Assembly (NCBI RefSeq): GCF_051903065.1
Contig: NZ_CP178438.1
From: Escherichia coli
GTDB taxonomy: Bacteria; Pseudomonadota; Gammaproteobacteria; Enterobacterales; Enterobacteriaceae
Length of the DNA stretch: 64,000 nt
Reading direction: 5' to 3' (one strand)
Shown: one piece after another, positions 12,387 through 22,685 of the stretch
Layout: each line of letters starts with the position of its first letter
Position numbering within the stretch: the first letter of the stretch is position 1
Made by a program: the position numbers and the translations under genes
Notes under the pieces: generated by a model
Told to the model about the DNA's origin: nothing
The model's input: the letters and a program-made list of their open reading frames with translations, nothing else
Databases searched by the model: none

Positions 12387-12470
12387 GCCGCTTTATTATC
12401 GAGTTCGGTGACCGCCAGGACGGTCACTTCTGAGAAAAGGCATTTACACAGAATCTTAAACAGGTTCACG
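12387..12470 (+). mobile_element. IS256-family terminal fragment (3' end with terminal repeat), opposite orientation to adjacent transposase pseudogene
   Basis: Direct repeat of 622-700; terminal sequence ggcatttacacagaatcttaaacaggttcac mirrors the sequence at 12358-12386. Confidence 0.5.
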
Positions 12471-13108
12471 CAGCACTGGCGTCAGGGCATTGATTGTCGC
12501 TTTCACTGATTTGCTCCGGTTTCCCGTGGTCAGACTGCGCACTTTCTCCTTCAGCCTGTTCACACTCGTCAGGGCTATTTTCAGCTTCAACTGTTTGTGC
12601 CATGTCATACTGTACCCGAGGAACTTCTGCTCCCACGGGCGCGCCACCGCGCTCTTCTTCTCATTCACTTTCTGCTTCAGTTTGTTCTCTACGACGTCCT
12701 GATACCATCCAGCAATGGCCGCCCTGCGGCATGCCTTCCTGCCATTTCTCTCTTTGCCCGTCCCGGACTATTTCCTCTTTCAAGTAGCGGCGTATCAGCC
12801 TCAGCACCCGCCTGTCCTTTATCGTACTGGCCAGACGCGTCATCAGGAGTCTGTGATCCACACGGTCGAAGAACTTCTCCAGATTTATATCCACCACCCA
12901 CCGTTTGCTGCCCCGTATATAATGCTGTGCCTATTGCACTGCCTGCCATACGTTGCGTCCCAGCCGGAAACCGTGCCTAGAGTCTGAGAAGCTTTTGTCC
13001 ACGATGGCGCTTAAATGTTGCGCTATAGCTATAGCCTGCTGGATAGGCCTATCCACCACTGTCGGGATGCCTAAGGTTCTCACGCCGCCATCATGCAGCT
13101 CTGACGGA
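12471..13108 (-). pseudogene. Group II intron-encoded reverse transcriptase/maturase remnant (frameshifted, internally deleted, truncated at both ends by IS insertions)
   Basis: RT motifs GIPTVVDRPIQQA and DINLEKFFDRVDH; C-terminal maturase-like RPWEQKFLGYSMT; split across overlapping ORFs in different frames. Confidence 0.65.
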
Positions 13109-13172
13109 TGAGGTAGCCTGAGTTTAACGGACACTCCTTCCTGAAATAGAATGGCATCAGAAGGAGCTAATA

Positions 13173-13435
13173 ATGAGCAGAAAAACCCAACGTTACTCTA
13201 AAGAGTTCAAAGCCGAAGCTGTCAGAACGGTTCTTGAAAATCAACTTTCGATCAGTGAAGGCGCTTCCCGATTATCTCTTCCTGAAGGCACTTTAGGACA
13301 ATGGGTTACCGCCGCCAGAAAAGGGCTCGGTACTCTTGGTTCCCGCACGGTGGCTGAACTGGAATCTGAAATTCTGCAACTGCGTAAGGCGTTAAATGAA
13401 GCTCGCCTTGAGCGAGATATATTAAAAAAAGCCGT
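13173..13435 (+). pseudogene. IS600-like OrfA, disrupted by IS30 insertion 5 bp downstream of the A7 slippery run
   Basis: MSRKTQRYSKEFKAEAVRTV...ERDILKKA then IS30 left end; continuation [10 protein letters not shown] follows IS30 right end at 14657. Confidence 0.75.
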
Positions 13436-15564
<2,129 letters not shown>

Positions 15565-15573
15565 CCACTTCAT

Positions 15574-15897
15574 GTCGTTGAACTGCATAATACTGGCCCA
15601 AGCACCGCAACCAGTCTTGCTGCGCTTATCGCTTTATGTTCGATATTGCTGGCAAAACCAGTACAGGAACAGATGGTGGTGTTGGGCAGTATGACGCTTG
15701 GTGGAGTAATTAACCCGATACAAGATCTTGCTGCCAGTTTACAGCTCGCCTTCGACAGCGGCGCAAAACGAGTTCTGTTGCCGATGTCCTCGGCTATGGA
15801 TATTCCAACGGTTCCGGCAGAGTTATTTACCAAGTTTCAGGTGAGTTTTTACTCAGACCCGGTTGATGCTGTTTATAAGGCGCTGGGTGTGAATTAA
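15574..15897 (+). pseudogene. Lon-like protease C-terminal domain fragment (possibly BrxL-like), 5'-truncated by IS600-like element
   Basis: In-frame translation from IS boundary: ...NTGPSTATSLAALIAL...MTLGGVINPIQDLAASLQLAFDSGAKRVLLP... parallels Lon DGPSAG...[30 protein letters not shown]; no N-terminal ATPase region present. Confidence 0.5.
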
Positions 15898-15983
15898 TGT
15901 AGTAACTATTTTAATGAACTGGAGAGGACAATGGCTCAAGAACGTTCTGTAATTAAATTCATCAGACCGGTAATGACTCCAAC

Positions 15984-16487
15984 TTATTGATAGTGTTTTA
16001 TGTTCAGATAATGCCCGATGACTTTGTCATGCAGCTCCACCGATTTTGAGAACGACAGCGACTTCCGTCCCAGCCGTGCCAGGTGCTGCCTCAGATTCAG
16101 GTTATGCCGCTCAATTCGCTGCGTATATCGCTTGCTGATTACGTGCAGCTTTCCCTTCAGGCGGGATTCATACAGCGGCCAGCCATCCGTCATCCATATC
16201 ACCACGTCAAAGGGTGACAGCAGGCTCATAAGACGCCCCAGCGTCGCCATAGTGCGTTCACCGAATACGTGCGCAACAACCGTCTTCCGGAGCCTGTCAT
16301 ACGCGTAAAACAGCCAGCGCTGGCGCGATTTAGCCCCGACATAGCCCCACTGTTCGTCCATTTCCGCGCAGACGATGACGTCACTGCCCGGCTGTATGCG
16401 CGAGGTTACCGACTGCGGCCTGAGTTTTTTAAGTGACGTAAAATCGTGTTGAGGCCAACGCCCATAATGCGGGCTGTTGCCCGGCAT
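15984..16487 (-). CDS. insB: IS1 InsB (expressed as InsAB fusion by frameshift)
   Basis: 167-aa ORF overlapping insA in -1 frame. Confidence 0.85.
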
Positions 16488-16681
16488 CCAACGCCATTCA
16501 TGGCCATATCAATGATTTTCTGGTGCGTACCGGGTTGAGAAGCGGTGTAAGTGAACTGCAGTTGCCATGTTTTACGGCAGTGAGAGCAGAGATAGCGCTG
16601 ATGTCCGGCGGTGCTTTTGCCGTTACGCACCACCCCGTCAGTAGCTGAACAGGAGGGACAGCTGATAGAAACAGAAGCCAC
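16406..16681 (-). CDS. insA: IS1 InsA
   Basis: 91 aa [43 protein letters not shown]... Confidence 0.9.
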
Positions 16682-16890
16682 TGGAGCACCTCAAAAACAC
16701 CATCATACACTAAATCAGTAAGTTGGCAGCATCACCGGCTGTTTATGCTACCCGATTCTCAAATCAATTACCGAAAGCTTCTGTTCATCAACTAACTCAT
16801 TACTTTTAATGATGGGGCCCTTTCTGGGGCCCAAGAAATTAACAACGCTAACAAACAACATAAATAACAATAAATTAAATAAAAAATTTC

Positions 16891-16909
16891 ATTCCTGCAG
16901 GGGACACCA
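16891..16909 (+). repeat. Partial copy of argW tRNA-Arg 3' end (att-type direct repeat) marking island boundary
   Basis: attcctgcaggggacacca matches the 3' terminal 19 nt of tRNA-Arg(CCU) argW as recalled; no upstream tRNA body. Confidence 0.65.
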
Positions 16910-17350
16910 GATACCCTTCAAACCAAATCTACCTTCATCCCGTAAACGATGGGTTTGGCAGCACACTTGCCCTATATCTACTCATTTTTACTGCAACAGG
17001 TTGAAATCTCAGCACTGTCAGAAAGCGCTGATGACTAAACAGCCCTGGGCCGGGCGATGTAACCATCACACAGAATCCTGATAGCGAAATATGGCGTGAC
17101 TCGATACTTCACTCCGCAATGCATTCCTTGATGAATTCGCAGGCCCGTGATACACGCGACAGGTCGCTGAATGACGACAATGTCCTGGAAATCAGCGAAC
17201 CGTGTATCCGGAGTACATTTGAGCGACTGTACCAGAACATGAATGAGGTGTTTGGATTAGGCGATTATTAGCAGGGCTAAGCATTTTACTATTATTATTT
17301 TCCGGTTGAGGGATATAGAGCTATCGACAACAACCGGAAAAAGTTTACGT

Positions 17351-18598
17351 CTATATTGCTGAAGGTACAGGCGTTTCCATAACTATTTGCTCGCGTTTTT
17401 TACTCAGGAAGAAAATGCCAAATAGCAACATCAGGCAGACAATACCCGAAATTGCGAAGAAAACTGTCTGGTAGCCTGCGTGGTCAAAGAGTATCCCAGT
17501 CGGCGTTGAAAGCAGCACAATCCCAAGCGAACTGGCAATTTGAAAACCAATCAGAAAGATCGTCGACGACAGGCGCTTATCAAAGTTTGCCACGCTGTAT
17601 TTGAAGACGGATATGACACAAAGTGGAACCTCAATGGCATGTAACAGCTTCACTAATGAAATAATCCAGGGGTTAACGAACAGCGCGCAGGAAAGGATAC
17701 GCAACGCCATAATCACAACACCGATAAGTAATGCATTTTTTGGCCCTACCCGATTCACAAAGAACGGAATAATCGCCATGCACAGCGCTTCGAGTACCAC
17801 CTGGAATGAGTTGAGATAACCATACAGGCGCGTTCCTACATCGTGTGATTCGAATAAACCTGCATAAAAGACGGGAAAAAGTTGTTGATCAAAAATGTTA
17901 TAGAAAGACCACGTCCCAACAATAAATATGACGAAAACCCAGAAGTTTCGATCCTTGAAAACTGCGATAAAATCCTCTTTTTTTACCCCTCCCGCATCCG
18001 CCGCTACGCACTGGTGATCCTTATCTTTAAAACACATGTTGATCATCATAAATACAGCGCCAAATAGCGAGACCAACCAGAAGTTGATATGGGGACTGAT
18101 ACTAAAAAATATGCCGGCAAAGAACGCGCCAATAGCATAGCCAAAAGATCCCCAGGCGCGCGCTGTTCCATATTCGAAATGAAAATTTCGCGCCATTTTT
18201 TCAGTGAAGCTGTCAAGCAAACCGCAGCCCGCCAGATAACCCAGGCCAAAAAAGAGCGCACCCAGAATTAAACCTACAGAAAAATTGCTTTGCAGTAACG
18301 GTTCATAAACGTAAATCATAAACGGTCCGGTCAAGACCAGGATGAAACTCATACACCAGATGAGCGGTTTCTTCAGACCGAGTTTATCCTGAACGATGCC
18401 GTAGAACATCATAAATAGAATACTGGTAAACTGGTTGACCGAATAAAGTGTACCTAATTCCGTCCCTGTCAACCCTAGATGTCCTTTCAGCCAAATAGCG
18501 TATAACGACCACCACAGCGACCAGGAAATAAAAAAGAGAAATGAGTAACTGGATGCAAAACGATAGTACGCATTTCTGAATGGAATATTCAGTGCCAT
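17351..18598 (-). CDS. cscB: Sucrose:H+ symporter CscB (LacY-type MFS)
   Basis: 415 aa, N-terminus MALNIPFRNAYYRFASSYSFLFFISW; arrangement with cscK, cscA, cscR. Confidence 0.9.
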   Translation of the reverse strand: MALNIPFRNAYYRFASSYSFLFFISWSLWWSLYAIWLKGHLGLTGTELGTLYSVNQFTSILFMMFYGIVQDKLGLKKPLIWCMSFILVLTGPFMIYVYEPLLQSNFSVGLILGALFFGLGYLAGCGLLDSFTEKMARNFHFEYGTARAWGSFGYAIGAFFAGIFFSISPHINFWLVSLFGAVFMMINMCFKDKDHQCVAADAGGVKKEDFIAVFKDRNFWVFVIFIVGTWSFYNIFDQQLFPVFYAGLFESHDVGTRLYGYLNSFQVVLEALCMAIIPFFVNRVGPKNALLIGVVIMALRILSCALFVNPWIISLVKLLHAIEVPLCVISVFKYSVANFDKRLSSTIFLIGFQIASSLGIVLLSTPTGILFDHAGYQTVFFAISGIVCLMLLFGIFFLSKKREQIVMETPVPSAI

Positions 18599-18669: not shown

Positions 18670-19584
18670 CTATTCCAGTTCTTGTCGACATGGCAGCGCT
18701 GTCATTGCCCCTTTCGCCGTTACTGCAAGCGCTCCGCAACGTTGAGCGAGATCGATAATTCGTCGCATTTCTCTCTCATCTGTAGATAATCCCGTAGAGG
18801 ACAGACCTGTGAGTAACCCGGCAACGAACGCATCTCCCGCCCCCGTGCTATCGACACAATTCACAGACATTCCAGCAAAATGGTGAACTTGTCCTCGATA
18901 ACAGACCACCACCCCTTCTGCACCTTTAGTCACCAACAGCATGGCGATCTCATACTCTTTTGCCAGGGCGCATATATTCCGATCGTTCTGTGTTTTTCCA
19001 CTGATAAGTCGCCATTCTTCTTCCGAGAGCTTGACGACATCCGCCAGTTGTAGCGCCTGCCGCAAACACAAGCGGAGCAAATGCTCGTCTTGCCATAGAT
19101 CTTCACGAATATTGGGATCGAAGCTGACAAAACCTCCGGCATGCCGGATCGCAGTCATCGCAGTAAATGCGCTGGTACGCGAAGGCTCGGCAGACAACGC
19201 AATTGAACAGAGATGTAACCATTCGCCATGTCGCCAGCAGGGCAAGTCTGTCGTCTCTAAAAAAAGATCGGCACTGGGGCGGACCATAAACGTAAATGAA
19301 CGTTCCCCTTGATCGTTCAGATCGACAAGCACCGTGGATGTCCGGTGCCATTCATCTTGCTTCAGATACGTGATATCGACTCCCTCAGTTAGCAGCGTTC
19401 TTTGCATTAACGCACCAAAAGGATCATCACCGACCCGACCTATAAACCCACTTATTCCGCCTAATCTGGCGATTCCCACCGCAACGTTAGCTGGCGCGCC
19501 GCCAGGACAAGGCAGTAGGCGCCCGTCTGATTCTGGCAAGAGATCTACTACCGCATCCCCTAAAACCCATACTTTGGCTGACAT
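18670..19584 (-). CDS. cscK: Fructokinase CscK (PfkB/ribokinase family)
   Basis: 304 aa with PfkB signature ...DSTGAGDAFVAGLL...; between cscB and cscA. Confidence 0.9.
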   Translation of the reverse strand: MSAKVWVLGDAVVDLLPESDGRLLPCPGGAPANVAVGIARLGGISGFIGRVGDDPFGALMQRTLLTEGVDITYLKQDEWHRTSTVLVDLNDQGERSFTFMVRPSADLFLETTDLPCWRHGEWLHLCSIALSAEPSRTSAFTAMTAIRHAGGFVSFDPNIREDLWQDEHLLRLCLRQALQLADVVKLSEEEWRLISGKTQNDRNICALAKEYEIAMLLVTKGAEGVVVCYRGQVHHFAGMSVNCVDSTGAGDAFVAGLLTGLSSTGLSTDEREMRRIIDLAQRCGALAVTAKGAMTALPCRQELE

Positions 19585-22466: not shown

Positions 22467-22685
22467 GTGCTGCCGCTGTATCCCGACATCAGCCCGGAAA
22501 TTATTGCGATTGCTATCGGTTCAGGCGCGATTGGCTGCACGATCGTTACGGACTCGCTTTTCTGGCTGGTGAAGCAATATTGCGGCGCTACGCTCAATGA
22601 AACATTTAAATACTATACGACAGCGACATTTATCGCTTCAGTCGTCGCTCTGGCGGGCACATTCCTGCTGTCATTTATCATCTAA
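22467..22685 (+). pseudogene. dsdX: dsdX 3' remnant (D-serine permease C-terminal about 70 codons)
   Basis: Hydrophobic C-terminal segment immediately upstream of dsdA with no N-terminal portion; csc cluster occupies the position of dsdC and dsdX 5' part. Confidence 0.7.

Follow-up and report, generated by a model that had tools for sequence, protein, structure and literature searches.

Between a repeat of the 3′ end of the tRNA-Arg gene argW and the sucrose transporter gene cscB, a stretch of Escherichia coli DNA contains an open reading frame with no start codon near its beginning. The stretch, referred to in the following as the window, comprises 64,000 nucleotides of contig NZ_CP178438.1 (assembly GCF_051903065.1). 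A sequence-only reading had proposed that the frame might be the 3′ end of a gene truncated when the island at argW or the csc cluster was acquired. What is this frame, how did it come to lie there, and does it still work as a gene? Very probably, it is a non-functional internal fragment, corresponding to about codons 38-151 of 281, of a DUF4942 gene and a relic of a CP4-type island at argW.

Identity of the open frame

The + strand encodes exactly the peptide quoted in the sequence-only reading, with the conceptual translation of the frame ending in ...DRSLNDDNVLEISEPCIRSTFERLYQNMNEVFGLGDY*, and the argW repeat that it mentioned is genuine. The coordinates of the frame itself had to be revised (Table 1). 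It is bounded on the 5′ side by a TGA at 17032-17034 and on the 3′ side by a TAG at 17269-17271, about 15 bases further left than the position near 17286 originally given for the stop. Counting the stop, the frame comprises 79 codons, where about 70 had been estimated. As had been noticed, there is no early ATG: none occurs within the first 28 codons, and the first one, at 17119, opens an ORF of 50 aa. The frame is the longest stop-free stretch remaining in the window's allele. Its length alone is uninformative, since the ORF list contains many spurious ORFs of 80-90 aa nearby and the chance of 79 stop-free codons, (61/64)^79, is ~0.02 per frame position.

Table 1. Features of the argW-cscB interval and adjacent genes, in window coordinates.
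Feature	Position	Strand	Evidence or remark
argW 3′-end repeat, 19 nt, ATTCCTGCAGGGGACACCA	16891-16909	+	attR core of the IS-ridden island filling window 1-16909
Spacer, 66 bp, directly after the argW/attR core	16910-16975		csc-linked
Upstream degenerate DUF4942 pseudogene piece, ~codons 38-63	16976-17052	+	blastn, tblastn
Main DUF4942-homologous piece, ~residues 82-151 of 281	17053-17262	+	blastn, tblastn, Pfam PF13708
Open frame, 78 sense codons + TAG	17035-17271	+	translation, RefSeq annotation
Junction segment, supplying the last codons (~DY) and the TAG	17263-17282		outside the block clearly conserved with Citrobacter
Native cscB 3′ flank with 11-bp-stem hairpin	17283-17350	-	86-87% identity, Citrobacter amalonaticus
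cscB, sucrose MFS transporter, intact	17351-18598	-	ORF list, annotation of identical genome
cscK	18670-19584	-	ORF list

What makes the frame genuine is its homology to DUF4942. Its translation matched the Pfam family DUF4942 (PF13708) with an E value of 4.3e-10 and a score of 40 bits, covering only positions 5-62 of the 190 in the profile. This score is above the curated cut-off of 25 bits and shows ancestry, not function. An intact member of the family has 281 aa, with the domain at residues 87-275 spanning profile positions 1-189, and the complete domain of ~190 positions in a protein of ~281 aa is not present here. In tblastn searches with two intact DUF4942 proteins, window positions 17035-17262 aligned with residues 76-151 at 53-54% identity (E 2e-20 to 4e-21), and positions 16976-17059 aligned weakly with residues 38-65, in a frame that differs from that of the main piece and contains a stop. 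At the nucleotide level, blastn showed homology over 16976-17254, corresponding to nt 112-445 of the 846-nt intact gene, at 74-77% identity. The main piece was 77% and 74% identical to the two intact genes, and the upstream piece was 74% identical over 88 nt (16976-17063) to positions 5001-5088 of locus L003, overlapping the main piece at a repeat.

The two pieces are joined by a 54-bp deletion, inferred because they overlap at a short sequence that is present twice in the intact gene; the deletion runs between imperfect direct repeats, which read GGCGATGAAA and GGCAATGAAA in the intact genes. A second lesion, a 1-bp deletion, lies near 17062-17063, and as a result of the two deletions the reading frame shifts between the pieces. 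The upstream piece also contains an in-frame TAA at 17036-17038. Counting both pieces, ~37 N-terminal and ~130 C-terminal codons of the gene are missing, and ~38-151 of 281 survive. Homology ended at nucleotide 17254 in the DNA comparison and at ~17262 in the protein comparison. The TAG that closes the frame is thus fortuitous rather than a native stop, since it lies beyond the last homologous base. An uninterrupted frame with native start and stop is consequently not found: both ends are missing, the remainder carries the TAA and the 54- and 1-bp deletions, and further stops occur in other alleles. The sequences on either side (16912-16975 and 17255-17350) resembled the rest of the intact DUF4942 genes and their neighbours no better than shuffled sequence did. 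The earlier idea of a truncated gene remnant was therefore borne out by the DUF4942 homology and the loss of both gene ends, and so was its association with the csc cluster, as one of the two breakpoints abuts csc.

We also looked for a closer intact relative of the fragment. A word-indexed search of 5.8 billion protein clusters returned only copies of the fragment, and the best full-length match in an exhaustive HMMER search of 1.84 billion representatives was 55% identical. Similarly, tblastn on a plasmid collection showed a gap between matches at 93-95% and those at ≤55% identity. That no intact protein exceeded 55% identity in the collections searched fits a long-decayed copy. As to the function of the parent family, NCBIfam gave no match and a PDB sequence search returned nothing, while the best PHROG matches of the DUF4942 family were without assigned function, apart from one match to part of a phage DNA methyltransferase family.

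Sequence variation and annotation

Twelve of the ~2600 alleles were aligned, a non-random choice made so as to cover the range of identity. Three of them contained premature stops inside the frame (CGG to TGA in L005 and L010, TCG to TAG in L007) and that of L008 had an 18-bp deletion; the frame was open in eight of the 12. None had a frameshift within 17035-17271, and deletions of 6, 2 and 1 bp were seen in the upstream piece of other alleles. Variable sites in the frame were spread over codon positions 1, 2 and 3 in the ratio 9:15:14. There were 12 synonymous and 28 nonsynonymous changes, giving a pN/pS of 0.64 that does not differ from the neutral expectation (p = 0.25). In cscB from the same genomes, by contrast, pN/pS was 0.075 and 68 of 93 variable sites were at third codon positions, indicating strong purifying selection; the difference between the frame and cscB was highly significant (Fisher p = 9e-8). 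The density of variable sites was 16% in the frame and 16-27% in the surrounding noncoding DNA. The spacer alone varied at 17 of 64 sites, and the 17-nt tail that follows the homology at one of 17.

Comparison with intact genes gave a similar picture. Omega between the fragment and intact genes was 0.32-0.47 (dN ~0.30), compared to 0.03 for two intact genes over the same codons, so that the purifying selection seen between intact DUF4942 members was not seen in the fragment. We conclude that the fragment evolves as noncoding DNA and is decaying neutrally. Very weak constraint on the frame, or its occasional translation, may nevertheless be possible, given the lack of frameshifts in the 12 alleles and a pN/pS of 0.64 that is based on just 40 changes. 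The sequence-only reading had named two observations that would speak against a gene remnant, a lack of homologues and codon usage like that of noncoding sequence. Homologues were found, both through Pfam DUF4942 and by tblastn with intact proteins; the other point applies in a sense, to the way in which the fragment evolves now.

Annotation of the frame is inconsistent. RefSeq labels it variously as a "DUF4942 domain-containing protein" of 50 or 60 aa, as a hypothetical protein, or not at all, and related protein clusters span 44-85 aa. Direct inspection of the sequence revealed nothing resembling a Shine-Dalgarno motif ahead of the ATG at 17119 or of the PGAP start at 17089. A consensus scan for promoters and terminators gave counts no higher than in shuffled sequence, and an Rfam scan of 16600-17500 returned nothing meaningful, the sole match being to CrcZ at 12.6 bits, compared to a cut-off of 95 bits. 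In practice, given the inconsistent labels, the RefSeq entry would be better marked as a pseudogene fragment.

The argW-csc junction

The block from 16912 to 17350 (439 bp) was found in 2644 of 5426 complete E. coli genomes, or ~48%, with at least 80% of the block present in 2623. It is almost always single copy and on the chromosome, and it abuts cscB in every locus fetched. The spacer bases 16912-16975 occurred in 2630 of the 5426 genomes, once in each and nowhere else, and each flank of the DUF4942 piece taken alone was confined to the same genomes. In csc-positive strains with nothing integrated, the genuine argW gene ends 2 bp before the equivalent of 16912, so that argW is followed by the entire spacer in csc-positive E. 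coli. The 3′ end of the genuine tRNA-Arg gene of such strains (L005, L008, L012 and L013) has the same sequence as ATTCCTGCAGGGGACACCA. Upstream of 16891 the sequence varies between island types. At least three different elements occupy argW in csc-positive strains: a CP4-like island as in the window (with Ag43, DUF932, antirestriction protein, RadC/JAB, DUF987 and YeeU), an element encoding a small recombinase (in O55:H7 and others), and a prophage carrying torI. All of them end in the same core, which is followed by the same spacer. Around this core, three unrelated argW elements keep tRNA repeats of different lengths, with ~15-19 nt in common (window 16880-16911 and the equivalents in L005-L013).

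In a genome whose sequence matches the window at 100%, the repeat is preceded ~23 kb upstream by argW and a truncated integrase gene, and the DNA in between is largely IS debris. This makes the repeat at 16891-16909 the attR of a later arrival, with the relic immediately beyond that repeat. As the breakpoints are the same in every csc-positive genome, the argW-csc junction seems to have arisen a single time, with the argW islands and prophages that came later inserting on its upstream side.

A search with an exact 26-nt pattern from the remnant in one genome per species gave no matches; the species representatives, that of E. coli among them, therefore lack the remnant. The same layout of attR core, spacer, DUF4942 remnant, hairpin and cscB was seen in L015, where the remnant is shorter, ~70% identical and carries more deletions. 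Since L015 keeps the same order with a shorter remnant, the junction is older than the divergence of L015 and the relic has been eroding since. L015 is strain SCPM-O-B-8794, labelled E. coli but a separate GTDB species representative, with a CscB of 95% identity; the region concerned is 7240-7786, in reverse orientation, where the remnant lies behind the attR of a torI-type prophage.

On the csc side of the junction, an 11-bp-stem hairpin follows cscB, with arms at ~17298-17308 and 17332-17342. Folded as minus-strand RNA it has an energy of -17.3 kcal/mol (z = -3.2). The hairpin is conserved in Citrobacter; its tail is AAAAUAAUAAU, not a run of U, and the terminator consensus scan made no call there. 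It is probably the cscB transcription terminator. When one genome per species was searched for relatives of CscB, csc loci came up in Citrobacter amalonaticus (90-92% CscB identity), in Rosenbergiella (~62%) and in two Escherichia genomes outside the main E. coli representative. The csc loci of C. amalonaticus resemble the window (86-87% identity) over no more than the 56-68 bp that follow the cscB stop; beyond them are a methyl-accepting chemotaxis protein (MCP) gene, fbp and mpl, and there is no DUF4942 sequence in these loci. We therefore assign 17283-17350 to the native csc flank, since it is conserved in C. amalonaticus, which has no DUF4942 piece. The fragment itself is not a conserved member of the csc unit: it accompanies csc throughout E. 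coli, but is absent in C. amalonaticus.

Two further observations concern this flank. In C. amalonaticus (L016 7249-7330 and L020 7247-7340), the MCP gene starts ~60 bp after cscB, and window 17263-17300, beyond the hairpin, can be aligned by eye with the MCP gene start at 17 of 26 nt, a likeness that is without statistical support. It is a hint that the csc segment of E. coli was excised from a context of this kind; we do not claim an MCP-gene start at ~17265-17290 on the strength of 17 of 26 nt matched by eye. In Escherichia sp. MOD1-EC7003 (L014 6432-6524), similarity to the window extends 33 nt past the cscB stop and breaks off within the hairpin, and unrelated sequence continues to the end of the contig. 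This break may reflect an insertion or rearrangement.

Beyond cscK, the annotation of a genome 100% identical over the query lists cscA, cscR, truncated dsdX and dsdA. The truncated dsdX, without its N-terminus, lies at ~22467-22685 (L001 11728-11946), between cscR and the intact dsdA, and is the known right-hand scar of the csc insertion.

In the annotation of the identical genome, the island that fills the left part of the window is a nested patchwork of IS elements (IS903, IS3, IS66, IS21, IS4, IS30 and IS1). Within an IS911/IS3-family element lies an intact IS30 transposase gene (13498-14649), directly followed by what remains of the OrfB of that element (14725-15564). Closer to the junction is an IS1 copy with its inverted repeat ending at 16736 and its transposase ORFs at 15984-16681. 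This IS1 is joined to a YeeU/CbeA-family antitoxin gene of which just the final ~28 codons remain (16723-16809) and the 5′ ~335 bp are absent (window 15969-16809), and on the other side of IS1 there is a fragment of an S16 (Lon-like) protease gene, an arrangement that suggests an IS1-associated deletion or rearrangement. In the related strains L002 (5663-6070) and L010 (991-1398), over the part equivalent to the window up to 16809, the YeeU-family antitoxin is 135 aa long, compared to 122 aa normally, and its C-terminal tail is divergent. The attR follows ~80 bp after it, with no gene for CbtA toxin, DUF5983, DUF957 or DUF4942, making it an orphan antitoxin. The 3′ end of this gene may mark an internal deletion of the right-hand module of the island.

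Origin of the fragment and comparison with known systems

A frame of this kind might be explained in several ways. If it were a chance ORF in noncoding spacer, with no coding ancestry, its unremarkable length and the noncoding look of its present-day variation would be as expected; this was excluded because the frame is significantly homologous, as protein and as DNA, to an established family, and we give it practically no credence. Scarcely more credible is that the frame is the true 3′ end of a gene, with its native stop, whose 5′ part was removed when the island or csc arrived, as originally suggested. The gene is indeed truncated, there is no start near the beginning of the frame, and the frame stops shortly before cscB. 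The part of the protein matched, however, is residues 76-151 of 281 and profile positions 5-62 of 190, with some 130 C-terminal codons absent; homology stops at 17254-17262, before the TAG, and the sequence past the breakpoint is unlike that of intact genes. The alignment coordinates thus refute the 3′-end reading. The idea of a functional small protein, in which a truncated N-terminal DUF4942 peptide of 50-60 aa would have been kept in csc-positive E. coli, could draw on the PGAP CDS present in many genomes and on a frame that is open in eight of 12 alleles, without internal frameshifts and with a pN/pS (0.64) below 1. We nonetheless consider it very improbable. Premature stops in three of the 12 alleles and the 18-bp deletion in one argue against it, as do the even distribution of substitutions over the codon positions and a pN/pS that is indistinguishable from neutral. 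The annotated starts are inconsistent (44-85 aa), many genomes have no call, no ribosome-binding motif is seen, only 58 of 190 profile positions are present, and the remnant is shorter still in L015.

A different question is whether the fragment came with csc, that is, whether a CP4-type island integrating at argW carried the sucrose genes as cargo at its right end. The sequence departs from that of csc-negative strains right at the argW 3′ end, as for an integrated element, the fragment and csc are co-inherited in every csc-positive genome, and the orientation of the gene fits an island reading away from argW. Against this, the surroundings of csc in C. amalonaticus are ordinary chromosome (MCP gene, fbp and mpl) and have only the hairpin flank in common with the window, no island with an intact DUF4942 gene adjoining csc was found, and there is no attR to the right of csc, where a truncated dsdX is found instead. 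Delivery as cargo thus appears unlikely, though it deserves far more weight than the readings above. The data do not separate it from a version in which csc entered a resident island, and the fragment is a dead relic in both.

The favored explanation, a dead internal fragment left by an island, would entail the following history. An old CP4-type island would have resided at argW, with the DUF4942 gene as its terminal gene, reading away from the tRNA. The gene would then have been cut near codon 150 and its 3′ half lost on the side where csc now begins; the csc side is also without dsdC and the 5′ part of dsdX (PMC3032704; PMC11251922). On the argW side, the rest of the island and the first ~37 codons of the gene would have been deleted. 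The leftover piece would subsequently have gained a nonsense codon, the 54-bp repeat-mediated deletion and the frameshift, and have drifted neutrally since, and all csc-positive lineages of E. coli would have inherited the 439-bp argW-to-cscB spacer. Elements that came later, among them the 23-kb IS-ridden island, would have integrated into argW upstream of the relic, which is why it now lies just outside the attR repeat. The order of these events and the ancestral island are our reconstruction, built around homology limits, lesions, distribution and neutral variation that were directly observed; a longer or intact DUF4942 copy at argW was not found in any genome examined.

More tentatively, the relic could be a datable scar of sucrose acquisition, with csc either delivered on the last gene of an argW CP4-type island or recombined into it. 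The source of csc would be a Citrobacter-like chromosome, since the 3′ flank up to ~17283 matches the Citrobacter cscB-MCP intergenic region, and all csc-positive E. coli, as well as at least one divergent Escherichia lineage, would descend from one event. We regard this as possible, but rather less likely than not to hold in full.

As a dead gene fragment, the relic carries very little biological weight in itself, and is mainly of use as a small evolutionary marker for the argW-csc junction. Descriptions already exist of the family PF13708, of the island module and of the argW/csc hot spot, and the ORF already bears a label from the NCBI pipeline.

In E. coli, the argW-dsdCXA/csc region is a hot spot for recombination (Jahreis et al. 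2002; Moritz and Welch 2006; cited in PMC11251922 and PMC3032704). This known locus is the same as ours, with the csc regulon between a variable argW region and a truncated dsdX, and with several elements using argW; the relevant passages of PMC11251922 and PMC3032704 deal with the csc and dsd genes, and not with the 439-bp spacer or the DUF4942 relic.

Over the retained part, the fragment resembles the intact DUF4942 proteins (such as WP_001280435.1 and WP_000065752.1; ~281 aa), with 53-54% amino acid and 72-77% nucleotide identity, and its orientation relative to the tRNA att site is that expected of the intact DUF4942 gene of a CP4-type island at the right island end at argW. It differs from the intact genes in comprising only codons ~38-151, with a stop, the 54-bp deletion and a frameshift, in having no native start or stop, and in evolving neutrally. 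The intact gene is the last of a YeeU-CbtA-DUF5983-DUF957-DUF4942 module, next to the tRNA or the island end. This terminal module of CP4-type islands is not matched here, as the fragment is situated beyond the attR core (downstream of 16909) and has no remnant of CbtA, DUF5983 or DUF957 next to it. The fragment is thus an ordinary pseudogene relic, of DUF4942 ancestry but without any of the properties of a functional member for which we looked. Other short remnants at the ends of E. coli prophages and islands are likewise truncated, drifting, located beside a tRNA integration site and inconsistently annotated, and the DUF4942 relic is distinguished from them only by its wide spread, to ~48% of complete E. 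coli genomes, through its linkage to csc.
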